A stretch of DNA of 64,000 nucleotides from Armatimonadota bacterium (GTDB lineage Bacteria > Armatimonadota > UBA5829 > DSUL01), in contig JBDHZC010000005.1 of NCBI GenBank assembly GCA_039811685.1, positions 72,057-136,056 of the forward strand, written 5' to 3'. How positions within the stretch are numbered: the stretch's first letter is position 1; the number at the start of each line of letters is the position of its first letter. The position numbers and the translations under genes are program-made. Of this stretch, positions 1 through 13,905 are shown piece by piece. The notes under the pieces were generated by a model. That model saw nothing but the letters and a program-made list of their open reading frames with translations. It was not told the origin of the DNA and ran no database searches.

Positions 1-111
1 GATGCCTTGAGTGGGTTCTTTACGCCGACGGGTCAGTCCGGCTACTACCTCTACAAGAAGCAGTCGCCCAGCGACGTGCGGCTGGAAGGAAGAGAAGTTC
101 CGTACCCGTAG
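1..111 (+). CDS. Small peptide, 5'-truncated at window edge (…DALSGFFTPTGQSGYYLYKKQSPSDVRLEGREVPYP*); paralog of the peptide at 4820..4939
   Basis: Reading frame from position 1 to TAG at 109-111. It is 85-90% identical at nt and aa level to the 39-aa ORF at 4820..4939, which lies just downstream of an E element. The flanks are also duplicated. Confidence 0.35.
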   Translation, partial: DALSGFFTPTGQSGYYLYKKQSPSDVRLEGREVPYP

Positions 112-135
112 CGCCTATCGGCGAAAGAGGATGAA

Positions 136-1128
136 ATGTTTCGACAGTTGATCTGGTTTGTCACAGCAGCGCTCCCTTTGCTCGCACTTGTGCTCGCCGC
201 GGCCGCGTGCGGTGCAAGCGATATTCCGGTCGCTGTGCCCGCCCCCGGAGAGCCGCCTGTTCTGTTCGCTGCCGAGTCAGCAGGTGTGCTCTACACGGCA
301 ACTCTGGAGGCGGACAAGCGCGTTGCGGTCATCGCCGCCCTGCCGCTTGATCGAGTTGCGGAAAAACGGACTTACACAGTGCCGGTACCCGCTCTCGAAT
401 ACGAAAGTTTCCAGCGGCTCCGCTGGAGACTGGGCAGCGGATACGCGTGGCTGCTGCCAACGGTGCTGACGAATGGTGGCTTACGCCGCTACCCGATGTA
501 TCGCATTCCGCGCAGCGAACTCGACAAACTCCTCCACGGCAGTAACGAAGCCAGCGGAAGCGGCTTGAAAGACATGTGGTTTCCGCCGGGCTTTGCGCCA
601 CTCACACGCGCGGACGATGAATCCGGGGTGAAAGGGCAGCCGATCTACGGAGACTTCTACCCTATCTCTACATCAGCTATCCGGCAGTTCATTTTGCAGG
701 GCAGCGTACTGAGCGTCTGGGACTACATCGGAAACCCAGACGCCAAGCGGCCTGGGGGAAGTGACAGAGACCTCACTCCCGTGGCTGACCGAGAGCGGTA
801 CTTCAACTGGGTCCGCGTGGTGAAGCTGAAGGCGCCTTTTACGGAGTCCTTCCACGCGTTTCCTCAGAAGGGCGGGTTCCTGCTGGTTACGGACTCCGGC
901 GCGCTCTACTCCATCACGGGCATCAGCACCGGTACTCCAGCGATACGCAGGGTGGATCTGGGCGACGAGCAGATCAGGGTTATCGTGCAGACGGAGGGTG
1001 GATCGGCCATTGCGGCGACGCAGACGAAGCGCCTCGATCTGTCCTCGGCGCCGAAGCTGTCGCCGCTTTCGCATCCGCACAGCTCACCGACGGCTGCGGC
1101 CCTTGAGCTGGCCAAAGCGCTGAAGTAG
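136..1128 (+). CDS. Secreted protein/putative lipoprotein, P-family paralog (330 aa)
   Basis: ATG with upstream GAGGA. N-terminal hydrophobic signal with LAAAAC lipobox-like motif. Near-identical copy at 4964..5956. C-terminus …LELAKALK is shared with 3400..4482 and 7300..8325. Confidence 0.6.
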   Translation: MFRQLIWFVTAALPLLALVLAAAACGASDIPVAVPAPGEPPVLFAAESAGVLYTATLEADKRVAVIAALPLDRVAEKRTYTVPVPALEYESFQRLRWRLGSGYAWLLPTVLTNGGLRRYPMYRIPRSELDKLLHGSNEASGSGLKDMWFPPGFAPLTRADDESGVKGQPIYGDFYPISTSAIRQFILQGSVLSVWDYIGNPDAKRPGGSDRDLTPVADRERYFNWVRVVKLKAPFTESFHAFPQKGGFLLVTDSGALYSITGISTGTPAIRRVDLGDEQIRVIVQTEGGSAIAATQTKRLDLSSAPKLSPLSHPHSSPTAAALELAKALK

Positions 1129-1181
1129 TAGCGGGGTCGGCCGCGCTCAGTGAAGGAAGTCAGCCATCGCGGAGTCAAAGA

Positions 1182-1358
1182 ATGGAGAAACAAGTAGCTC
1201 AGGCGCAGCAAACCGTTCTGACTCTTGAAGCTGCGACAGCTACCTGCGCCGATTGGAAGCAGTGGTGGGCCGAGAACCAGAGCCAGTTTCAGTCCGGCAC
1301 CAGGAGCAAAGCTGAAGCTGCGGCCTTCGAACCAGCCGAACCCGCAACGGAGCAGTAG
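1182..1358 (+). CDS. W-module small protein (58 aa, MEKQVAQAQQTVLTLEAATATCADWKQWWAENQSQF…)
   Basis: ATG 1182 preceded by a conserved GAAGGAAG-containing leader. Homologous to the ORF at 8379..8555 and to the C-terminal ~50 aa of the HEAT protein at 6209..7165. Ends at the TAG that begins E copy 1. Confidence 0.45.
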   Translation: MEKQVAQAQQTVLTLEAATATCADWKQWWAENQSQFQSGTRSKAEAAAFEPAEPATEQ

Positions 1359-1461
1359 CGGAGGAACAGCGCTTCATCCGCGCAGGTGTCCTCACCTGCG
1401 CATAGAATTGGCGAATCTTTCACCCACTGGCTCCAGGTGGGGACATCTGGAGAGATGTAAA
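1356..1461 (+). repeat. E element copy 1 (~105 nt structured repeat: 5' arm agcggaggaacagcgcttcatcc, hairpin 1, spacer, hairpin 2, GGAGAG-ATG-TAA)
   Basis: One of six near-identical copies. Hairpin 1 is gcgcaggtg-tcct-cacctgcgc at 1380..1401. Hairpin 2 is ctccag-N10-ctggag at 1431..1452. ATG 1455-1457 is followed immediately by TAA. Confidence 0.8.
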
Positions 1462-1553
1462 TGGGGGCCCTTCTGCCAGACTGGGACGATGATGATCCCA
1501 ATCTGAACGGGGCGGAGAACGAGGACCTGGACCAGGTGACACGCGTCGAATGA
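1461..1553 (+). CDS. Acidic small peptide (30 aa, MGALLPDWDDDDPNLNGAENEDLDQVTRVE)
   Basis: Its ATG directly abuts the TAA of the E minimal uORF (ATGTAAATG). Its stop TGA 1551-1553 overlaps ATG 1550-1552 (ATGA). Coding status is uncertain. Confidence 0.3.
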   Translation: MGALLPDWDDDDPNLNGAENEDLDQVTRVE

Positions 1554-1561
1554 GGAGACCA

Positions 1562-3034
1562 ATGGTTTACAATGGAGTTATGGTCGTCGCCCGGCAGAAA
1601 GGCCCTGCCGGCCACTATGCAGCTGTCCTCGCGATAGCCGCATTCGTGTCCGCAGTGTGTGCTGCACAAGCGGCGTGCGAACTGCCAACTCACGGTTGGG
1701 AGTTCACAGTCGCAGCGGAGCACACGCCGGCTGTAGCGATCAGTAGAGACGGCTCGCGCATCGCCGTTTCCGACTGGGCGGCCATCTATCTACTTGACCG
1801 GCAGGGCAAGGTGCTGTGGACCGCGAAGGCGCCACCGAAGAGTGGCTTCGGAGTGACCGCCATCTCTGACACCGGCCATCGTGTGCTGTGCTGGAAGATT
1901 CGGCGCCTCCCAAGTGTGGACAACGAGGATATCGACTACAACGCGGTGCTCTTCAACGGCGCCAACGGGCAGGTGCTGACCGAGATCGAGCTGGACGGGG
2001 GCCGAGTGCCGACGGCGCTGTCTGGCGATGGACGGTATATTCTGGCGGGCTATCCGCCGGACGGCCTGGGCCTGGAAATGGCAGCACAGCCTGATCCCGC
2101 CAACTACCTCATGCTCTTAGATGACACCGGCAAGACCGTCTGGCGCTCAGACAAGCTTGCCCAAAAGCCCGTTGTCGGAGCGGCTTACGGCTTTTTATCC
2201 CACACCGGTTCCTATGCGCTGCTCGGCGCAAAAGACCGCCTGAACCTTGTGACCATCGGCGGCTATCACCTTTTCGACATTGCACTGACGTCAGACCCTG
2301 CCGTTTCCGCCGACGCTGACTTGATCATGATGGGCGCCACACCCGTGTTGTCCACAGACGTTCAGAAGTATGAGACCGCATGGCCTGTTGTCGCGCCACA
2401 GGGTGAGCAAGAGCCGCAGACATGGGGCCATGAGTCCTTTGGCTTCAAGACGTACACTGCAGCCGCGGCGCTCGCCTTGGTCCGCGTCGGGGATGTGGCC
2501 GAGGAGTCGCCTCCCCCGAACCGGCGGCATCCCTTTGCGGAGCTGGTGTGGGCGCATGGCGAGATCTGGGCGGGAAACCGGGAACGAGTGCTGGATGCGC
2601 CGAAGCTTCCGCCCATTCCCGCCGGTAATCCTGGACGGCGCGGGGTTGCCTACGGATCGGCTGGGCTGCTGGCAATTGTCGACCACACGCTGTTGGCGGC
2701 AGAGCTTGGGCAGGAGCACGCGGTGAAGTTGCTACGCCTGCCAGGGCTGGGGATTGTGAAAAGGGTCGGCGTGTCCAGCAACGCTTCCCGCGCCTACACT
2801 CTCGTCGCCGTCCCCGCTGGGTCCGATCTAGTGGGACGCGGCCCCAGCACGGGTTCGGCGGCTTCCGCTCTTGTCTGCACCGTCTGGGACAGGTCTGCCA
2901 AACCTGTTGCAACAATGCCTCTTTCAGAGCAGGAGAGGCCCTTCGCGATAGCCTTCTCCCACGCAGGCGATCTCCTGATCCTAGCGTGGAAGGGTAAGGT
3001 GCAGGCGTTCGAGATCGGAGGCGTCGCCAGGTAA
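1562..3034 (+). CDS. Secreted beta-propeller-like (PQQ/WD40-like repeat) protein
   Basis: 494-aa ORF; ATG 1562 preceded by GAGGAG at good spacing (alternative ATG 1550). Hydrophobic N-terminus and repeated …DG..IAVSD/…LLD.QGKVLW-like strands. It occupies the same position as the P-family genes between E copies 1 and 2. Confidence 0.5.
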   Translation: MVYNGVMVVARQKGPAGHYAAVLAIAAFVSAVCAAQAACELPTHGWEFTVAAEHTPAVAISRDGSRIAVSDWAAIYLLDRQGKVLWTAKAPPKSGFGVTAISDTGHRVLCWKIRRLPSVDNEDIDYNAVLFNGANGQVLTEIELDGGRVPTALSGDGRYILAGYPPDGLGLEMAAQPDPANYLMLLDDTGKTVWRSDKLAQKPVVGAAYGFLSHTGSYALLGAKDRLNLVTIGGYHLFDIALTSDPAVSADADLIMMGATPVLSTDVQKYETAWPVVAPQGEQEPQTWGHESFGFKTYTAAAALALVRVGDVAEESPPPNRRHPFAELVWAHGEIWAGNRERVLDAPKLPPIPAGNPGRRGVAYGSAGLLAIVDHTLLAAELGQEHAVKLLRLPGLGIVKRVGVSSNASRAYTLVAVPAGSDLVGRGPSTGSAASALVCTVWDRSAKPVATMPLSEQERPFAIAFSHAGDLLILAWKGKVQAFEIGGVAR

Positions 3035-3237
3035 CCCGGGTCGAGAACCCAATGCAGTTGACTTACTACGCCGACTGGAACTCAGAGACCGTAGCGATGG
3101 CCGGACTGCTTGCCGGAGGGGACGGCCAGTGCGGCTCCGCCTCAGGCGCAGCACGACGGCCTGGAGGGCCCGGCCTAGCAGCAGATGGTCGCCTGTCTCA
3201 CGGATATGAAGACCGCGCTGGGGTGTCCCCAGGCTAT

Positions 3238-3328
3238 GCTTCATCCGCGCAGGTGTCCTCACCTGCGCATAGAATTGGCGAGTCCTTCGCCCACTGGCTC
3301 CAGATGGGGACACCTGGAGAGATGTAAA
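3238..3328 (+). repeat. E element copy 2 (5' arm degenerate)
   Basis: gcttcatccgcgcaggtgtcctcacctgcgcatagaattggcgagtccttcgcccactggctccagatggggacacctggagagatgtaaa, with ATG 3322-3324 and TAA 3325-3327. The upstream 200 nt look like a decayed W-module. Confidence 0.75.
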
Positions 3329-3399
3329 GCTCGACCTGATATCGAGTGACGTAGCCGGCAGGGAAGCCTCGTATCCATAGCGTTAGAAGGAGTCACTAG

Positions 3400-4482
3400 A
3401 TGAAGATCACCGCTGTTGCCAAAGCTCTTCTTGTCTGTTGGTTGGCGGTCGACGCCGTCAGCCCTGCCGTCGCCGAGAGCTATCTATTCAGTGAAGAGAC
3501 GAAGCACCCCCTGATCGTCCAGCGCCCGCTGACAGGCATACTGGTTGATGAGACTATGTACACTCTCTCGATCGCGCCAGAGTCGGGCTATGCGCCTGTA
3601 CTGACGGAGACGCCGATGACCGCGCTTGCCGCGCCTGTCAGCTACGCTCTCACCGCAGTAGCCGACGCCAGACGCCCGGCCTTTCCTGTTCACTGGTCGC
3701 TGCGTGGAGGTTTTGTTTGGACGTTGACTGAGTCCGATACGCCGCTGAGTGGCATAGTGCCGTTTTACTTCAGTCTTCAGCGGACTGCGCTGACTGGCCT
3801 GGAGCCGTGTGCCGCAGCCACCACGCATGTGGTCAAGCCCGGTACTGTTGCCGATGTGTGGCACGCTCATCTGGCTAAGTGGGAGCGTGTCGCTTTCACT
3901 GAGCCCGAGACGCTGAACGACGCGACGCGGGCCGCCCGGCCTCCCGAGGTACCCTATCCTCTTGCCGCTATCGTGGTGACGGGACCGGTGACCGTCCAGC
4001 TTTTCCAGTTGACCGCCCCACATATGATGGGATGGGAGTACCGTGGGCCGGAGAAGCCTCGGCGGTGGAAAGCCGCGTTTGGGCCGGGGATGGCGCCGAT
4101 CTCTCCCGAGAGTCAGCGGGGCGTGCCTCTCAAGGAGCGTACTCACTCCGGCGACTGGTGGCGCATAGGGATGTTCGACGTTCCCTTCAGCGAGGCCTAG
4201 GAAGTGGCCAAGGTCGAAGGTACCTACTACGCCGTGACACAGAGCGGAGAGGTTTTCTCTCTGGGCGACCTTACCGGGAAAGTAAAGAAGATCGACATAG
4301 GAGGCAGACGTGTGACGGCGATTCTGACGCTGGAGGAGAGCGGAAAGGTGTATCTTTGTTCGCATGAGGACTACGCGCCGCTGTCGGATTCGCCTGGATT
4401 CAAATCCATTCCTGGAGGACACCCAGACGTCACCAGATCGGCAACGCAGTGCCTGCTGGACCTGGCGAAGGCGTTGAACTAG
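3400..4482 (+). pseudogene. P-family paralog interrupted by a single in-frame TAG (3400..4200 plus 4204..4482 in the same frame)
   Basis: Signal peptide at N-terminus. The last ~90 aa (…GGRRVTAILTLEESGKVYLCSHEDYAPLSDSPGFKSIPGGHPDVTRSATQCLLDLAKALN) are near-identical to the C-terminus of 7300..8325. TAG at 4198-4200 is in frame and flanked by homologous sequence on both sides. Confidence 0.5.
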
Positions 4483-4538
4483 CGCAGGGACTGCCATCCG
4501 CACGCAGTGAAGGAAGGCAGCCATCGCGGAGTCAAAGA

Positions 4539-4716
4539 ATCGAGAAATGAGCGGCTCAGGCGCAGTAAAGCGATCTGAATCTGAAGGCCGCGGAAGCTGC
4601 CAGGTCCGATTGGGAGCAGTGGCGGGCAGAGGACCAGAGCCAGTTTCAGTCCGGCACCAAGATCAAAGCTGAGGCTGGCGCACCCTCGATGTCGCCCGGC
4701 CCCGCGGCTCAGCCGT
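4539..4716 (+). pseudogene. W-module small ORF, degenerate copy (start ATG to ATC, internal TAA)
   Basis: Aligns to 1182..1358 and 8379..8555. Start codon mutated (aatCgagaa), stop within 'cagtaaagc', and a diverged middle. The 3' end …WEQWRAEDQSQFQSGTKIKAEAGAPSMSPGPAAQP* is retained. Confidence 0.5.
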
Positions 4717-4818
4717 AGCGGAGGAACAGCGCTTCATCCGTGCAGATGAGCGCATCTGCGCATAGAATTGGCGAATCTTTCACCCACTGGCTCCAGGTGG
4801 GGACACTTGGAGAGATGT
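4716..4818 (+). repeat. E element copy 3
   Basis: Hairpin 1 gtgcagatg-agcg-catctgcgc is a compensatory variant. Hairpin 2 is ctccag…cttggag. ATG 4815-4817 is followed by TGA, which overlaps the ATG of the next ORF (ATGTGATG). Confidence 0.8.
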
Positions 4819-4819
4819 G

Positions 4820-4939
4820 ATGCAAGACGATGCGTTGAGCGGGTTCTTTAGGCCGGCGGGTCAGTCCGGCTACTACCTCTACAAGAAGCAGTCGCCCAGC
4901 GATGTGCGGCTGCAAGATACTGAAGTTCCGTACCCGTAG
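4820..4939 (+). CDS. Small peptide (39 aa, MQDDALSGFFRPAGQSGYYLYKKQSPSDVRLQDTEVPYP)
   Basis: ATG overlaps the stop of the E minimal uORF. Conserved in the duplicate at window start (1..111), with mostly conservative changes. Confidence 0.4.
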   Translation: MQDDALSGFFRPAGQSGYYLYKKQSPSDVRLQDTEVPYP

Positions 4940-4963
4940 CGCCTATCGGCGAAAGAGGATGAA

Positions 4964-5956
4964 ATGTTTCGACAGTTGATCTGGTTTGTCACAGCAGCGC
5001 TCCCTTTGCTCGCACTTGTGCTCGCCGCGGCCGCGTGCGGTGCAAGCGATATTCCGGTCGCTGTGCCCGCCCCCGGAGAGCCGCCTGTTCTGTTCGCTGC
5101 CGAGTCAGCAGGTGTGCTCTACACGGCAACTCTGGAGGCGGACAAGCGCGTTGCGGTCATCGCCGCCCTGCCGCTTGATCGAGTTGCGGAAAAACGGACT
5201 TACACAGTGCCGGTACCCGCTCTCGAATACGAAAGTTTCCAGCGGCTCCGCTGGAGACTGGGCAGCGGATACGCGTGGCTGCTGCCAACGGTGCTGACGA
5301 ATGGTGGCTTACGCCGCTACCCGATGTATCGCATTCCGCGCAGCGAACTCGACAAACTCCTCCACGGCAGTAACGAAGCCAGCGGAAGCGGCTTGAAAGA
5401 CATGTGGTTTCCGCCGGGCTTTGCGCCACTCACACGCGCGGACGATGAATCCGGGGTGAAAGGGCAGCCGATCTACGGAGACTTCTACCCTATCTCTACA
5501 TCAGCTATCCGGCAGTTCATTTTGCAGGGCAGCGTACTGAGCGTCTGGGACTACCGCGGAAACCCAGACGCCAAGCGGCCTGCGGAAAGTGACAGAGACC
5601 TCACTCCCGTGGCTGACCGAGAGCATTACTTCGACTGGGTCCGCGTGGTGAAGCTGGAGGCGCCTTTCACGGAGTCCTTCCACGCGTTTCCTCAGAAGGG
5701 CGGGTTCCTGCTGGTTACGGACTCCGGCGCGCTCTACTCCGTCGCGGGCATCAGCACCGGCACTCCAGCGATACGCAGGGTGGATCTGGGCGACGAGCAG
5801 ATCAGAGTTATCGTGCAGACGGAGGGTGGATCGGCCATTGCGGCGACGCAGACGAAGCGCCTCGAGCTGTCCTCGGCGCCGAAGCTGTCGCCGCTTTCGC
5901 ATCCGCACAGCTCACCGACGGCTGCGGCCCTCGATCTGGCCAAAGCGCTGAAGTAG
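4964..5956 (+). CDS. Secreted protein/putative lipoprotein, P-family paralog (330 aa); recent duplicate of 136..1128
   Basis: About 97% aa identity to 136..1128. The upstream 140 nt are also duplicated. Followed directly by TAGTAG and E copy 4; the W-module ORF is absent here. Confidence 0.6.
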   Translation: MFRQLIWFVTAALPLLALVLAAAACGASDIPVAVPAPGEPPVLFAAESAGVLYTATLEADKRVAVIAALPLDRVAEKRTYTVPVPALEYESFQRLRWRLGSGYAWLLPTVLTNGGLRRYPMYRIPRSELDKLLHGSNEASGSGLKDMWFPPGFAPLTRADDESGVKGQPIYGDFYPISTSAIRQFILQGSVLSVWDYRGNPDAKRPAESDRDLTPVADREHYFDWVRVVKLEAPFTESFHAFPQKGGFLLVTDSGALYSVAGISTGTPAIRRVDLGDEQIRVIVQTEGGSAIAATQTKRLELSSAPKLSPLSHPHSSPTAAALDLAKALK

Positions 5957-6062
5957 TAGCGGGGGAACAGCGCTTCATCCGCGCAGATGAGCTCATCTGC
6001 GCAAAGCATTGGCGAGTCCTTCACCCACTGGCTCCAGGTGGGGACACCTGGAGAGATGTAAA
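5957..6062 (+). repeat. E element copy 4
   Basis: Hairpin 1 is gcgcagatg-agct-catctgcgc. ATG 6056-6058 and TAA 6059-6061. Confidence 0.8.
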
Positions 6063-6071
6063 GCGACGTTC

Positions 6072-6212
6072 GTGGCGGCAATCAACCAGGAGAGGATCGC
6101 GGGTGATAAGGATTACGAGGAGCAGGCCTACGGCGCGGAGGCCGTGTGCGAAATGGACCTGCTGGAGGAGACGTGCGCGTACGTCACGCCGCCATGTGAG
6201 GCGTGTCCATGA
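6072..6212 (+). CDS. Acidic 4-Cys small peptide A (…DKDYEEQAYGAEAVCEMDLLEETCAYVTPPCEACP); start codon uncertain (GTG 6072?)
   Basis: Open frame from the E element to TGA 6210-6212, which overlaps ATG 6209 of the HEAT gene (ATGA). Homologous to peptide B at 8660..8782 with pattern C-x8-C-x6/7-C-x2-C. Confidence 0.4.
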   Translation: MAAINQERIAGDKDYEEQAYGAEAVCEMDLLEETCAYVTPPCEACP

Positions 6213-7165
6213 CCATGGTATGCAGTCCTAGAACGGAGGTCGTTTTGAAACTCTTTATTGTGCTACTGCTTGCTGCTGCTCTTTGTGTTACGGCAATATC
6301 CGAGGGTGCGTCGGCCGAGCGCACGTGTGCCGCCACCAGGTATTACCGCTCCACGGTTTCTGAGTTGGTCGGGCTGCTTTCGAGTGGGCTGTCTATCGAC
6401 CGGTTCGACGCGGCTCTCGAACTCGGGCGGCGAGGCGATGTGTCAGTGATCCCTGCAATGAAGGCTGCGCTTGGCGATCCGGAGCGTTTCGTGCGGATGC
6501 GGATAGCTGCTGCGCTGCTGGATCTCGGCGATCGAAGCGGCGTGGAGGTACTTCACGAAGTTGTTACGTCGGGTGAGCCCTACTGGAGTCTGGCAGCGGC
6601 GGAGGTGCTTGCCCATCACGGTGACACCTTTGGCCGTGATCTCATCAGGAAGGCTCACTCTTCGAGCAGTTGGGTCGCTCGCTCCTCAGCCTTAAGGGCC
6701 TCGGCCGACCTTCCGGAGGGGCCGCCCTACGACGCCGTGGCTGCCGGACTGGAGGACTCGCAGCAGATTGTCCGCTTGACCGCCCTGAGGGCTGCTCAAA
6801 TGTGCCATGACCCCCGGGTGAAGGATCTGGTCCGCAAGGCGTTGTCTTCTTCCGATACGCTTCTGAGGGCGCGCGCGGCCATCATAATTGCGGAGGAGGG
6901 GCAGCCCGCAGACATTCCGGCTCTGATAGCGCTGTTGACAGCTCCGGATGGGGTTACCCGTTCTGCCGTTCTCAGAGCACTGCAGTCGCTGACGGGGCGT
7001 GCTTCTCCGTCGAAAACCGTTCTGACTCTTAAGGCTGCGACAGCTATCCGCGCTGAGTGGGAGCAGTGGTGGGCCGAGAACCAGAGCCAGTTCCCGCCTG
7101 GTACCAAGATCAAAGCTGAGGCTGGCGCACCCTCGGTGTCGCCCGGACCCGCGGCTCAGCCGTAG
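6209..7165 (+). CDS. Secreted HEAT-repeat (PBS-lyase/E-Z type) protein with C-terminal W-module
   Basis: Signal peptide (LKLFIVLLLAAALCV). Tandem repeats of the …LG(D)xxxxxxLxxxLxDxxxxVRxxAAxAL… type. The last ~50 aa (KTVLTLKAATAIRAEWEQWWAENQSQFPPGTKIKAEAGAPSVSPGPAAQP) match the free-standing W-module ORFs. GTG 6203 is an alternative start. Confidence 0.6.
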   Translation: MTMVCSPRTEVVLKLFIVLLLAAALCVTAISEGASAERTCAATRYYRSTVSELVGLLSSGLSIDRFDAALELGRRGDVSVIPAMKAALGDPERFVRMRIAAALLDLGDRSGVEVLHEVVTSGEPYWSLAAAEVLAHHGDTFGRDLIRKAHSSSSWVARSSALRASADLPEGPPYDAVAAGLEDSQQIVRLTALRAAQMCHDPRVKDLVRKALSSSDTLLRARAAIIIAEEGQPADIPALIALLTAPDGVTRSAVLRALQSLTGRASPSKTVLTLKAATAIRAEWEQWWAENQSQFPPGTKIKAEAGAPSVSPGPAAQP

Positions 7166-7267
7166 CGGAGGAACAGCGCTTCATCCGTGCAGAGGAGCGC
7201 ATCTGCGCATGGACTTGGCGAATCTTTCGCCCACTGGCTCCAGATGGGGACACCTGGAGAGATGTAA
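7163..7267 (+). repeat. E element copy 5
   Basis: Starts at the TAG of the HEAT gene. Hairpin 1 gtgcagagg-agcg-catctgcgc has one mismatch. ATG 7262-7264 and TAA 7265-7267. Confidence 0.8.
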
Positions 7268-7299: not shown

Positions 7300-8325
7300 A
7301 TGAGAAGCAAAGGACACAGTAAAATGAGGGTACGGAAACGGCCTCTTCTTCTTCTCTTCGGAGTCCTACTTGTCACCACTCCACCAGCTGTCGGGCAGCC
7401 GTCTCCTGGTGTTCGCCTACGTCCTGGTCAAAGCCAACTGGTGCAGACTCCGCTGACGGCCTCTTCACGTGCGGGCGTTCTTTACACAGTGATCATTGAC
7501 AAAGGGCGTGCCTTGCTGCGGCAGACGCCTCTTGATACTTCATCGCCCGTTCGCTTCGCAAGTCTGGAGTCCTCCAGCCGTTTGACCGGTATCGGCCCGA
7601 TGTTTCCAGCGCATTGGGGACTTGCAGACGGCTTCCTTTGGTCGCTGGTTCTTGAAGAAGGAGACGCATACTGGGCCAGCCCACATCTAAGCCGCTTCGC
7701 GCTGGAGGACATGCGTCTCGTGGACCCGGACAACGCCCTTCCGCCTCGAGGCGCGCACCGCACAAGGCGCACAGAAGTCCCCCCGTATCCTCTCCTGGAT
7801 GCCATCGCGGAAGGGTCAAACCGTGACTTACTGGTCTTCCCCGCGCTTCAGCCCCTGTCGCGCAAATCCGTCCGCCTGTTCGTGCTGCAGCCGCCCGTGC
7901 TGACGGTATGGGTGAACGAAGACCCCGCGCTTTTCGCACCACGAACGTCCGGACGCAGCGTCGAAGGACGCGTGAAGGAAAAGGGCAGGATTGAGAACTG
8001 GTTGAAGGTTGCGTCTATCAGTGTTCCTTTCGCCGAGCCTTTCGAAGTTGTTGGGTGCGGTTCCGTCTGCTACTTCATCACAGGAAGCGGGGACCTCTAT
8101 GCAGATAAAGATCTGAAGGCAAGTCCGCAGAAGATCGACACAGGAGGCAGGCGCGTGACGGCGATTCTGACGCTGGAGGAGAGCGGAAAGGTGTATCTTT
8201 GTTCGCACGAGGACTACGCGCCGCTGTCGGATTCGCCTGGATTCAAATCCATTCCTGGAGGTCACCCAGGCGTCACCAGGTCGGCAACGCAGTGCCTGCT
8301 GGACCTGGCCAAAGCGCTGAAGTAG
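7300..8325 (+). CDS. Secreted protein, P-family paralog (341 aa)
   Basis: Basic N-terminus followed by a hydrophobic signal (RPLLLLFGVLLVTTPPAVG). Middle region recognisably homologous to 3400..4200. C-terminal 90 aa near-identical to 4204..4482, ending LLDLAKALK. Alternative start at 7324. Confidence 0.6.
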   Translation: MRSKGHSKMRVRKRPLLLLFGVLLVTTPPAVGQPSPGVRLRPGQSQLVQTPLTASSRAGVLYTVIIDKGRALLRQTPLDTSSPVRFASLESSSRLTGIGPMFPAHWGLADGFLWSLVLEEGDAYWASPHLSRFALEDMRLVDPDNALPPRGAHRTRRTEVPPYPLLDAIAEGSNRDLLVFPALQPLSRKSVRLFVLQPPVLTVWVNEDPALFAPRTSGRSVEGRVKEKGRIENWLKVASISVPFAEPFEVVGCGSVCYFITGSGDLYADKDLKASPQKIDTGGRRVTAILTLEESGKVYLCSHEDYAPLSDSPGFKSIPGGHPGVTRSATQCLLDLAKALK

Positions 8326-8378
8326 TAGCGGGGTCGGCCGCGCTCAGTGAAGGAAGTCAGCCATCGCGGAGTCAAAGC

Positions 8379-8555
8379 ATGGAGAAACGAGCGGCTCAGG
8401 CGCAGCAAACCGTTCTGACTCTTAAAGCTGCGACAGCTATCCGCTCCGATTGGGAGCAGTGGTGGGCCGAGAACCAGAGCCAGTTCCCGCCTGGCGCCAA
8501 GATCAAAGCTGAGGCCGCACCCCCGGCGTCGCCCGGACCCGCGGCTCAGCCGTAG
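8379..8555 (+). CDS. W-module small protein (58 aa, MEKRAAQAQQTVLTLKAATAIRSDWEQWWAENQSQFPPGAKIKAEAAPPASPGPAAQP)
   Basis: Same conserved leader (cagtgaaggaagtcagccatcgcggagtcaaag) and ATG context as 1182..1358. Ends at the TAG that starts E copy 6. Confidence 0.45.
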   Translation: MEKRAAQAQQTVLTLKAATAIRSDWEQWWAENQSQFPPGAKIKAEAAPPASPGPAAQP

Positions 8556-8659
8556 CGGTGGAACAGCGCTTCACCCGTGCAGAGGAGCGCATCTGCGCAT
8601 TGAATTGGCGCATCTTTCGCCCACTGGCTCCAGGTGGGGACATCTGGAGAGATGTAAAC
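8553..8659 (+). repeat. E element copy 6
   Basis: Hairpin 1 is gtgcagagg-agcg-catctgcgc. ATG 8652-8654 and TAA 8655-8657. Carries an internal TGA in the frame that is open in the other copies. Confidence 0.8.
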
Positions 8660-8782
8660 AAACAACGTGATGAAGAAGAAGCGTACTCCGAACAGGAGAT
8701 GTGCGAGAGGCTTACGTTGGACGACTGGTGTACATTTGGTATCCACGGGCCCTGCACGGCGTGCGATGATCTCAATGACTAG
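8660..8782 (+). CDS. Acidic 4-Cys small peptide B (…RDEEEAYSEQEMCERLTLDDWCTFGIHGPCTACDDLND); start codon unresolved
   Basis: Homolog of peptide A with the same Cys spacing and the conserved EE.AY…C.E motif. Ends at TAG 8780-8782, 20 nt upstream of the second HEAT gene. The only in-frame ATG is at 8699; the homology extends upstream of it. Confidence 0.35.
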   Translation, partial: KQRDEEEAYSEQEMCERLTLDDWCTFGIHGPCTACDDLND

Positions 8783-11762: not shown

Positions 11763-13277
11763 ATGGCGCGCGTCAGGGATATACGCACTGTCTCGGTGCG
11801 TACAAAAATCCTCGTGCCGGTTCTCTTCATTGTTGTCGCTGTCTTTGCCGCTATTCTCTACGGCGCCGCTCTGGTACTGGAAGCGCAGCGGCACGAATAC
11901 TCCCGAAGAATTGGTAGAAGAGTCTCCAGCGCTGTTGCTGGCGGGTTGCACTCCGCTCTGATGACTGGACGCAAAACCGAAGCACAGGAAGCCATCCGGG
12001 TTATGCTCTCCGAAGCGGACCTCCCTCCCAGTCAAATCGCTATTCGCAAGCTGGACGGCGCTTACTGGATTCGCGGCGGCGACAATACAATCCCGCCGCA
12101 TTCGTTTGCGCTGAAACCGTCTCTAAAGGAGAACTCCAGCCGAGAGTTCAGCGTTGGCGCTGCCCGTTTCATCAATACCACATCAGTTCTCCCGAATGAG
12201 CCTGAGTGTCAAAGCTGTCACAGCCCCGCCACCCGAGTGCTCGGCTATCTCGAAGTGGACCTTCCCGTGGTCTGGGTGCGCCAGCGCCACCAGGCGACTC
12301 TCACGGCTATCGCCGTTATTGCGGGGCTGACGCTTCTGCTGCTGGCTGTTGCAATCGTTTTGTCCGTCCAGATAGCGGTTGTTACGCCGATCAAGGGTCT
12401 GGCAAGCGCTATGACGGTGGTTAAGGGCGGGCATCGCGATGTTCAGGTGGAAGCCGGACCGGAAGACGAGATCGGCATGCTGAGCAGACGGTTCAACGAG
12501 ATGGTGGATGAAGTGGCTGAGGCGGAACACTCTCTTGTCGAAAAAGAGCACCAGCTTGCGCGGGCGGAGAAGCTGGCTGGGATTGGGCTGATGGCTGCGG
12601 GAATCGCCCACGAGATAAATAACCCGCTGACCGCTGTGTCGATGGCCGCGGAGAGTATCAATCTCCCCAACGCCACACAAGAGCAGCGGCAAAGGCTGAG
12701 CGCCTACATTCTGGAGGGTACGCGGCGAATCCAGGATATTGTGGCTGAGCTTCTGACGCTGGATCAGAAGCGAGCTTTGAATGTGACTGAGCAGGACGTT
12801 GCGGAGATCGTCCACGCCGCGCTGGCTGGCAGACAGATTCCCGGTAACATCACGGTGCACGCCAGTTTGGCTCCGGATCTTCCAAAAGTTCACGTGGACT
12901 GGGAACGAATTGTGAGGGCAATCGGCAACCTTGTGAAAAACGCTCTCCAGGCGATGCCTGACGGGGGAGAATTGACTTTGTCTGCAGAAGCTGGAAAAGG
13001 CGAGGTACTGATTGACATCAAGGATACAGGTGGAGGTATAGCCCCCGAACATCTCCACCGCATTTTTGATCCTTTTTTCAGCACGCGGGAGGTCGGAGAA
13101 GGCTTTGGACTGGGACTGGCTTTTGCGCACGCTGTGGTGAAGCAGCACGGGGGGGACATAACAGTCAGCAGCGAACCTGGCCGTGGAACGGCATTTACAA
13201 TCTCGTTGCCCGTTGAGCCGGGAGCGAACCCAGAGGAACCTGGTGATTCCAGGGACGTGTCAGAGATGGAGGAATAG
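11763..13277 (+). CDS. Sensor histidine kinase with periplasmic CxxCH heme-binding motif
   Basis: TM segment, periplasmic domain containing CQSCH, second TM, H-box (IAHEINNPLTAV), and HATPase_c G-boxes (DTGGGI…GLGLAF). Confidence 0.7.
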   Translation: MARVRDIRTVSVRTKILVPVLFIVVAVFAAILYGAALVLEAQRHEYSRRIGRRVSSAVAGGLHSALMTGRKTEAQEAIRVMLSEADLPPSQIAIRKLDGAYWIRGGDNTIPPHSFALKPSLKENSSREFSVGAARFINTTSVLPNEPECQSCHSPATRVLGYLEVDLPVVWVRQRHQATLTAIAVIAGLTLLLLAVAIVLSVQIAVVTPIKGLASAMTVVKGGHRDVQVEAGPEDEIGMLSRRFNEMVDEVAEAEHSLVEKEHQLARAEKLAGIGLMAAGIAHEINNPLTAVSMAAESINLPNATQEQRQRLSAYILEGTRRIQDIVAELLTLDQKRALNVTEQDVAEIVHAALAGRQIPGNITVHASLAPDLPKVHVDWERIVRAIGNLVKNALQAMPDGGELTLSAEAGKGEVLIDIKDTGGGIAPEHLHRIFDPFFSTREVGEGFGLGLAFAHAVVKQHGGDITVSSEPGRGTAFTISLPVEPGANPEEPGDSRDVSEMEE

Positions 13278-13284
13278 CAGGGAT

Positions 13285-13905
13285 ATGCCTAAGCGAGTCT
13301 GGACAGCAGAGCGTGTTGTCGAGGAAATACAGCAACTCGAGAAATCGGGCGTCGATCTGAGGCACGGTTCTGTCCAGGACGAGCACAAGAGGCTGGTAAG
13401 CGCGGCGATCCGTTACTTTGGAAGCTGGAGAGCGGCGGTTGAAGCCTCAGGGCTTGACTATGAAAAGCTGCGGCAGTCCTCTGAAGAGCAGCGCCTTCAG
13501 AAGATTGGAAAATGGTCGGAGGAGAGGATTCTTGCGGAAATCAAGGATCTGAAGGACAAAGGAGACGATCTGCGCGCTGTGATGGTCAAGAACAAGTACC
13601 CCGCGCTGTTCTCAGCGGCGGTCAGCCCCAGGTACTTTGGCAACTGGCGAAAAGCTCTGACAGCGGCGGGAGTGGACTACGATACAGTGCTGTCCCGGTC
13701 CCCGCGCGGGCGTCCAAAAAGGACCGACGTCTGGCACGCAGGGCTGATTCTGCAGAAAATCCGTGAGATGCATGCGAAGGGGCAGAGCCTGGAGTCCGAG
13801 GCGATATCTTCGCACTATCCCCGCCTTCTCCGGCTTGCGACAATGCGCTTTGGAAGCTGGCACTCTGCGGTGGATGAGGCCCTCTCAAAAGACAACTCCG
13901 CATAG
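13285..13905 (+). CDS. Hypothetical protein with three tandem ~45-aa repeats (R[YM]FGSW..A…G[LV]DY)
   Basis: ATG 13285 just after the kinase stop. Repeats RYFGSWRAAVEASGLDYEKL / RYFGNWRKALTAAGVDYDTV / MRFGSWHSAVDEAL resemble homing-endonuclease-associated repeats; this resemblance is from memory. Confidence 0.4.
   Translation: MPKRVWTAERVVEEIQQLEKSGVDLRHGSVQDEHKRLVSAAIRYFGSWRAAVEASGLDYEKLRQSSEEQRLQKIGKWSEERILAEIKDLKDKGDDLRAVMVKNKYPALFSAAVSPRYFGNWRKALTAAGVDYDTVLSRSPRGRPKRTDVWHAGLILQKIREMHAKGQSLESEAISSHYPRLLRLATMRFGSWHSAVDEALSKDNSA

Follow-up and report, generated by a model that had tools for sequence, protein, structure and literature searches.

What is a short open reading frame (ORF) doing when it begins at the very end of a repeated DNA element and stops just ahead of a gene for a secreted protein? 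The question is raised by a 64,000-nucleotide (nt) stretch of DNA from an uncultured Armatimonadota bacterium (assembly GCA_039811685.1, contig JBDHZC010000005.1, positions 72,057 to 136,056), which is called the window below and whose first letter is position 1. From this position to ~9.7 kb, the window is an array in which all genes lie on one strand: fast-evolving genes for secreted proteins, with six copies of a ~90-nt repeat, here named E, between them. The array is probably co-transcribed. Two of the E copies, E1 and E3, are followed by ORFs of 30 and 39 codons, p30 and p39. Our preferred answer, of low to moderate confidence, is that both are "pass-through" spacer ORFs, which would deliver ribosomes to the next gene.

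Two small ORFs behind repeat E

The anatomy of the two ORFs, as given in the original prediction, is confirmed by the sequence: p30 at 1461-1553 adjoins the stop codon of E1 and its own TGA (1551-1553) overlaps an ATG at 1550, and the ATG of p39 (4820-4939) overlaps the TGA of E3. The TGA of p30 also overlaps a Shine-Dalgarno (SD) sequence, GAGGAG (1552-1557). The ATG of p30 is found 8 nt past the GGAG of E1 and that of p39 7 nt past the GGAG of E3; among the genes of the window, the spacing from GGAG or GAGG to the start peaks at 6-7 nt. For p39, an in-frame GTG at 4817, placed in an AUGUG context, is an alternative start giving a product of 40 amino acids (aa). Both ORFs occupy nearly the whole of their spacers, with stops 9 nt (p30) and 24 nt (p39, ahead of ATG 4964) from the next start.

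Codon usage was examined by a log-odds score derived from 19 confident genes in other parts of the window; real genes average 0.46 ± 0.19 when read in frame and -0.38 ± 0.21 when read off frame. The score of p30, 0.83 (z=4.1 relative to dinucleotide shuffles), is reached by 0 of 2000 shuffles (p<0.0005) and by none of the 79 spurious ATG-ORFs, 25-50 codons long, that lie inside real genes; the GC content of p30 by codon position is 0.80/0.30/0.73. Because of this score and the shuffle and spurious-ORF tests, p30 is very probably a coding sequence, now or until recently, and it merits annotation as a candidate small ORF. It is missing from the NCBI annotation made by PGAP. The Logan gene caller predicts it in contigs from four samples with identical DNA, and it is invariant among the five contigs recovered. 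The peptide is acidic, with 10 Asp/Glu and one Arg; its residues 6-13, PDWDDDDP, contain seven D or P in eight positions, and trypsin would release from it a peptide of 28 residues, MGALLPDWDDDDPNLNGAENEDLDQVTR.

The coding signal of p39 is weaker and only suggestive: its score is 0.26-0.33 (z≈2.1, p≈0.015), which 9% of the spurious ORFs reach. The length of the ORFs by itself is within chance, given one or two open frames in each long spacer and a probability of ~0.3-0.4 per frame for 30-39 stop-free codons at the 59% G+C of the window. The peptide had been described as Tyr/Lys-rich, an overstatement, as 4 of its 39 residues are Tyr and 2 are Lys.

It had also been described as conserved, with conservative substitutions, in a second copy. 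The 36 codons of this copy (A) do exist at 1-111, but positions 1-1136 and 4829-5964 are the two halves of one recent duplication (1136 nt, 97.7% identical, 26 differences), so that conservation over it is uninformative; moreover, copies A and B differ by 5 amino acids of 36 (T/R, T/A, E/Q, G/D, R/T), mostly non-conservative changes, in addition to 3 synonymous codons. The proposed check by the ratio of non-synonymous to synonymous substitution rates (dN/dS, Nei-Gojobori) gave 0.42 (4 synonymous and 6 non-synonymous changes), and ~3 in the other two frames. When 10 changes were placed at random, 31% of trials left the ORF open and produced 3 or more synonymous changes, and thus 0.42 is not significant. 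Since the bona fide gene beside p39 itself gives 0.9, the dN/dS test is powerless at this locus.

The 26 differences are spread patchily: 10 fall in the 111 nt of p39 and 16 in the 3' third of the gene for a 330-aa secreted protein, and 112-726 is identical. Gene conversion is therefore suggested. A Logan contig (L005, SRR35018966), compared with window positions 1-1283, has a copy A that carries the 3' patch of p39 from copy B, and its 58-aa ORF (see below) is converted towards the copy at 8379. From these mosaic copies, exchange between array copies, and thus gene conversion among array modules, seems to be ongoing in natural populations. The same contig supplies the missing start of copy A of p39, in the same ATGTGATGCAAGAC context, together with the 3' part of a further repeat copy, E0, which lies ahead of the window; both p39 copies, that behind E0 included, have the identical start context ATGTGATG.

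Where could such sequences have come from? The exact sequence of p39 is in no protein collection that was searched, including one of 15 billion proteins. It has EVPYP in common with the neighbouring genes of the 330/341-aa secreted-protein family; Smith-Waterman alignments with them are marginal (p=0.011 and 0.064) and are driven by EVPYP, and the profile hidden Markov model (HMM) of the family fails to recognise p39. On sequence resemblance, it is a weak possibility that p39 is an internal relic of this family. p30 finds only itself in the 15-billion-protein collection, on Logan contigs of the same organism, and elsewhere in the window its sole match is marginal, a 19-nt repeat located where the downstream gene ends (p≈0.02). 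The four differences in this core repeat (1532-1550 versus 3026-3044) are all synonymous in the frame of p30 (QVTRVE), yet 2% of random tiles score equally, and it was set aside as evidence. An imperfect direct repeat (CCAGGTRACMCGSGTCGAR ... CCAATG ... TTAC) at 1532-1572 and 3026-3066 flanks the downstream gene. A -1 frameshift joining p30 to the downstream protein was also rejected: there is no slippery heptamer, and the frame in question stops at 1490 and 1493.

Structure and distribution of repeat E

The whole window was searched with a 21-nt core pattern of E, which gave six matches where 0 were expected; every match is on the + strand and inside the first 9 kb. A covariance model returned the same six copies and none from the other 54 kb. 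The consensus fold consists of two 9-bp hairpins with 4-nt loops and a common core, CAGRTG-N4-CAYCTG, with stabilities of -9.6 to -17 kcal/mol (hairpin 2 alone, -9.8 to -16.5). For example, hairpin 1 of E1 is GCGCAGGTG-TCCT-CACCTGCGC and hairpin 2, folding at -13.9 kcal/mol, is CTCCAGGTG-GGGA-CATCTGGAG. Among the copies, hairpin 1 shows one compensatory change (GGTG/CACC versus GATG/CATC) and hairpin 2 has G-U and A-C variants at one pair; substitutions keep the hairpins, not amino acids. Hairpin 2 has CCTGGAG as its 3' arm, after which come AG, ATG and TAA (TGA in E3 and E0), and this ATG-TAA or ATG-TGA end is present in 6/6 copies and in E0. At TAA the homology between copies stops sharply, and the downstream sequences are unrelated to one another.

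The centres of the two hairpins are 51 nt apart, and shared 9-bp-stem cores at this distance could equally suit a dimeric DNA-binding protein. Several other identities of E were considered and rejected. As for a coding sequence, the frame of ATG-TAA extends for 33 open codons from the upstream TAG in every copy (for example, 1356-1460), yet scores -0.02 in codon usage. Neither a sigma-70-like promoter nor a U-tract terminator is present; for a sigma-54 or extracytoplasmic function (ECF) promoter, the consensus does not fit by eye and the TAGAAT hexamer varies among copies. Against an integron attC site, the flanking core sites (GTTRRRY / RYYYAAC) were not found by eye, and E forms two separate hairpins instead of one long imperfect palindrome.

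The element has no match in Rfam at gathering score over the 64 kb and only chance-level matches in 1-10 kb at E<=5, and its 20-nt core has one chance match among genome contigs (inside an Actinomadura coding region) and none among metagenome contigs. E appears to be a lineage-restricted intercistronic repeat. In enterobacteria, repetitive extragenic palindromic (REP) sequences and bacterial interspersed mosaic elements (BIMEs) are short GC-rich hairpin repeats found after stop codons between co-oriented genes. Like these, E starts 12 nt past a TAG stop in 5/6 copies; unlike these, it is known from one array (six copies in 9 kb), and it has two related hairpins and a conserved single-stranded part and ends with SD-ATG-stop.

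Initiation and the genes downstream

The ATG of E itself is only 2 nt past GGAG, a spacing used by 0 genes in the window, versus 7-8 nt for the small ORFs. Because of this, if the SD of E initiates anything, the small ORFs are more likely to be used than the one-codon ORF.

Coupling of p30 to the next gene through the ATGA at 1550 had been proposed. This is doubtful: both gene callers, NCBI and Logan, start the gene at ATG 1562, which is preceded at 4 nt by the GAGGAG of 1552-1557, and therefore the ATGA is probably not a coupling point. The downstream product, a 490-aa protein that is 100% identical in the NCBI and Logan entries (P0002), had been called a beta-propeller, for which the sole basis is a sub-threshold PQQ_2 match (E=0.022). 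Every other large gene likewise has a strong SD of its own: GAGG, 5 nt and ATG 4964 after p39; GGAGG, 5 nt and TTG 6245; and GGAGG, 5 nt and ATG 8805. Predicted folds of the regions 1455-1590, 4840-4985 and 12-157 are no stabler than shuffles (z=0.13, 0.17 and -0.14, respectively), and the downstream SDs are not consistently paired. Unstructured spacers like these are expected for coding rather than RNA-structural sequence.

Composition and surroundings of the array

The features of the array are collected in Table 1. Locus tags IT209_02430 to 02475 cover the window proteins in a metagenome-assembled genome (MAG) annotated as "Armatimonadetes bacterium" (protein look-ups), and the same DNA or near-identical strains are present in several Logan assemblies. 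Public runs in which the organism occurs are SRR31740696, SRR17578869, SRR35018966, SRR31861156, SRR20729861, SRR19427039 and SRR19427073. In addition to the genes tabulated, the array holds two HEAT-repeat protein genes. On its 3' side lie a convergent PEP-CTERM gene, rex, a histidine kinase gene and a glycosyltransferase-rich cluster; an HNH_repeat ORF (homing-endonuclease-associated repeats, E=2e-15) is located at 13183-13905 between the histidine kinase and an HAD hydrolase.

Table 1. Positions of repeat E, the small ORFs and the neighbouring genes and gene relics in the window
Feature	Position	Strand	Remarks
p30	1461-1553	+	30 codons, MGALLPDWDDDDPNLNGAENEDLDQVTRVE; directly after TAA 1458-1460
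p39	4820-4939	+	39 codons; ATG overlaps TGA 4818-4820
p39, second copy	1-111	+	36 codons, cut by window edge
E1	1371-1460	+	GGAG 1449-1452 in 3' arm of hairpin 2; ends ATG (1455) TAA (1458-1460)
E2	3238-3327	+	followed by 72-nt spacer with stops in all frames, no ORF
E3	4731-4820	+	GGAG 4809-4812; ends ATG (4815) TGA (4818-4820)
E4	5972-6061	+	followed by Cys-peptide ORF 6072-6212
E5	7178-7267	+	no small ORF after it; next gene start 33-57 nt downstream
E6	8568-8657	+	followed by second Cys-peptide ORF, ending 8782
330-aa secreted protein, copy A	136-1128	+	
330-aa secreted protein, copy B	4964-5956	+	GAGG 4955-4958, 5 nt, then ATG 4964
490/494-aa secreted protein	1562 (490 aa) or 1550 to 3034	+	ATG at either start
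341-aa-type paralogue, intact	7300/7324-8325	+	
341-aa-type paralogue, interrupted	3400-4200 plus 4204-4482	+	in-frame TAG 4198-4200
Cys-peptide ORF 1	6072-6212	+	46 aa, annotated IT209_02445
Cys-peptide ORF 2	~8654-8782	+	other frame relative to E than ORF 1
58-aa ORF	1182-1358	+	HEAT C-terminal module copy
58-aa ORF	8379-8555	+	HEAT C-terminal module copy
Module relic	4539-4720		contains stops
HEAT C-terminal module region	7001-7165		grouped with module copies

The 330-aa and 341-aa-type secreted proteins (28% identical, E=1e-17) form an uncharacterised family without a Pfam match; among its conserved motifs are RW.L..GF.W and EPF....G..YFFVT.SG.LY. One 341-aa-type gene is a pseudogene or else a split gene: it is interrupted by an in-frame TAG, and PGAP makes two proteins of it, IT209_02460 and 02455. 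The 92 codons after the TAG have retained a gene-like codon score of 0.43; beginning at nt 4286, this DNA matches the intact paralogue (8129-8655) at 88% identity. Read-through or recoding of TAG, a notion prompted by this codon together with the open frame of E, was dismissed: no tRNA gene lies within the window, a double TAG precedes E4, and TAG terminates 7 of 19 ordinary genes in the window.

Other small ORFs accompany E. Two of them, the Cys-peptide ORFs, precede the HEAT genes; a start codon at SD distance from E is lacking in both. Their products are 39% identical over 31 aa, with many third-position differences, and share EE.AY….C-x8-C-x6/7-C-x2-C; because this motif is shared with so many synonymous differences, they are probably real. 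Precursors of ribosomally synthesised and post-translationally modified peptides (RiPPs) were considered for the small ORFs and discarded, as no maturation enzymes occur among the neighbours scanned. The "WEQWWAENQSQF" helix module at the C-terminus of the HEAT proteins, which is carried with E in several copies, is copied in the free-standing 58-aa ORFs; the two that are open, annotated by NCBI as hypothetical proteins, look like 3'-end relics. A decayed module is also suggested ahead of E2, where 13 nt (CTCAGGCGCAGCA) located about 80 nt from the repeat are identical to the beginning of this module. IT209_02465 (91 aa, 3052-3327), which crosses E2 and terminates at the TAA of the repeat, is probably spurious, because its codon score is 0.08.

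Searches in other organisms

An exact look-up in 5.8 billion clusters gave no homologue of p30 or p39, and there the 330-aa, 494-aa and 58-aa proteins recover only themselves. A representative library of 1.84 billion proteins, searched with the profile of the 330/341-aa family and not with p30 or p39, contains 49 distant representatives of the family at E<1e-3. Through these, a related array was identified in another organism (contigs L015 and L016, the latter from GCA_037135195.1), in which family genes are 41-51% identical and a HEAT gene is present; L015 also carries truncated family genes of 63, 190 and 193 aa. Neither E, by the covariance model, nor p30 or p39 was found at five loci of distant family members (L012-L016), tblastn with p30 and p39 against L013-L016 returned nothing, and the related array shows no similarity to the Cys peptides. 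None of this comparative evidence is usable.

The related array has its own repeat of ~100 nt (L015 4620-4722 and 5510-5614, also L016), formed by a hairpin with 19-nt arms and then ...CTGGAGATGGCC; its ATG opens the truncated 193-aa family ORF. Homology between E and this repeat (E') was considered and rejected: they resemble each other block-wise, and the resemblance is not significant (p=0.06-0.9).

Comparison with known intercistronic and start-stop ORFs

Short ORFs that act between genes are known elsewhere. In Salmonella, mgtQ is an 8-codon intercistronic ORF between mgtC and mgtB, and promotes translation of the next gene (PMC8092293). Like mgtQ, p30 and p39 are short intergenic ORFs inside a probable operon, not in a 5' leader, and share with it acidic codons; when mgtQ is translated, it is the translation of the next gene that is affected. 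There are also clear differences. mgtQ opens a stem-loop hiding the ribosome-binding site of mgtB, whereas none was found over the downstream SDs here; the sequestered SD lies instead upstream of the small ORF, the ORFs have 30-39 codons instead of 8, and they are known from sequence alone.

The end of E resembles two further systems. Start-stop sites of E. coli (for example, in yecJ and hslR) lie inside genes and have been shown to bind ribosomes (Meydan et al., 10.1101/520783). Similarly, E ends in ATG and then TAA or TGA, with an SD-like GGAG before them, and the TAA-to-TGA change keeps a stop; in E, only 2 nt separate the ATG from a GGAG that is itself paired, which makes use of this ATG doubtful. 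Overlapping AUGUG / GUGUG initiation sites are found at annotated E. coli starts (PMC9841429). E3 and E0 likewise read GGAGAGAUGUGAUG, with an AUG, a GUG two bases on and a further AUG, so that two frames share one SD, although here one frame is the one-codon ORF and the other is the putative p39.

Pass-through ORFs, remnants or small proteins?

If p30 and p39 are pass-through ORFs, as we tentatively propose, hairpin 2 of E would open and expose GGAG, and a ribosome would initiate on the AUG that follows GGAG by 7-8 nt (1461 or 4820), read across the otherwise unstructured spacer and terminate on or just before the SD and start of the next secreted-protein gene, which it would then reach by termination-reinitiation; the act of translation would matter more than the peptide. 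The GGAG spacing, the codon score of p30 and the weaker one of p39, the filling of the spacers and their lack of structure, the identical start context of both p39 copies, the dN/dS of 0.42 in the frame of p39 versus ~3 in the others, the choice of p30 by an independent gene caller, and mgtQ as a precedent all speak for this proposal. Many points weigh against it. The GGAG is paired inside hairpin 2, whose stability should strongly depress initiation, and coupling is not needed, because each downstream gene has its own good SD and no inhibitory structure was found over it. The general order of E, then a short peptide, then a coupled gene, as originally predicted, is not supported: no ORF comes after E2 and E5 (2/6 copies), and the Cys-peptide ORFs stand in differing frames and do not start at the SD of E. 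Furthermore, PGAP calls neither p30 nor p39, the selection test on p39 is without power, the 5.8-billion-cluster look-up yielded no homologue of either ORF, and E has no relative in the collections searched. Nearly as likely is that the two ORFs are non-functional leftovers or chance ORFs in a recombining patchwork, where decaying coding pieces, such as the 3' ends of former genes, would have kept a codon-like look and begin with ATG by accident. The array is indeed rich in gene relics (the 58-aa ORFs and the stop-containing copy at 4539-4720), one family gene is split by a TAG, truncated family genes occur in L015, and gene conversion has made mosaics of p39 and the 58-aa ORF in strain contigs; the EVPYP of p39 and its marginal alignment with the neighbouring family, the ORF lengths expected by chance, the lack of homologues and the non-significant dN/dS point in the same direction. 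What remnants would not explain so easily is that two independent ATGs lie exactly 7-8 nt past GGAG, in frame with the sole spacer-long ORF (by a rough estimate, ~0.05 per copy by chance). Nor does the family profile HMM detect p39, and p30 matches nothing else in the window apart from the marginal 19-nt repeat.

The remaining explanations give the ORFs more to do and are less probable. p30 and p39 may be small proteins with a role of their own, for instance as a cytoplasmic chaperone, inhibitor or partner of the downstream secreted protein, with the Cys peptides as analogues. The very gene-like codon usage of p30 agrees with this, and the Cys peptides, conserved and in one case annotated by NCBI, indicate that small genes do exist at this position of the array. 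We nevertheless regard it as unlikely: homologues are lacking both in the cluster look-up and in the related array, p39 changes 5 of 36 residues between near-identical duplicates, neither peptide has a signal peptide or a recognisable motif, and p30 is predicted from composition alone. Improbable, too, is a role as regulatory sensor leaders, in which the PDWDDDDP of p30 would destabilise the ribosome, so that completion of the ORF and delivery to the next gene would depend on Mg2+ or on the state of the ribosome. By analogy, D/E/P-rich stretches near the N-terminus abort translation in E. coli and are used for sensing in mgtL (10.1101/2021.02.02.429294), with mgtQ as a second precedent (PMC8092293), and the Cys-peptide ORFs are likewise acidic ahead of their first Cys. 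On the other side, p39 has only Asp3-Asp4, and the cluster of p30 contains a bulky Trp, a type of residue reported to counteract the effect (10.1101/2021.02.02.429294). Further, no alternative RNA structures joining an ORF to the downstream ribosome-binding site were found. It also counts against such sensors that, to our knowledge, nothing of the kind has been tested in Armatimonadota. Slimmest of all are the prospects of a combined version, in which E would be a portable translational gate, made of an SD-sequestering hairpin and a one-codon start-stop and spread through a recombining family, and the acidic ORFs (p30 and the heads of the Cys peptides) would be ribosome-destabilising sensors setting the downstream supply of ribosomes, in the manner of mgtL/mgtQ but across an operon, and in a phylum that has hardly been studied.

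Meaning of the two ORFs

There is no evidence so far for a function of either peptide, and repeat E and the mosaic array are more interesting than the two peptides themselves. We know of no work on translational control in Armatimonadota. At best, p30 and p39 join a known class, that of the leader or intercistronic ORFs. As remnants, they would be an example of the codon-like debris that recombining arrays leave behind and that can easily be taken for small genes. If they are both translated and coupled to the next gene, this MAG would gain two unannotated micro-genes, and the intercistronic small ORFs that control translation would gain new cases, here tied to an apparently lineage-restricted repeat.

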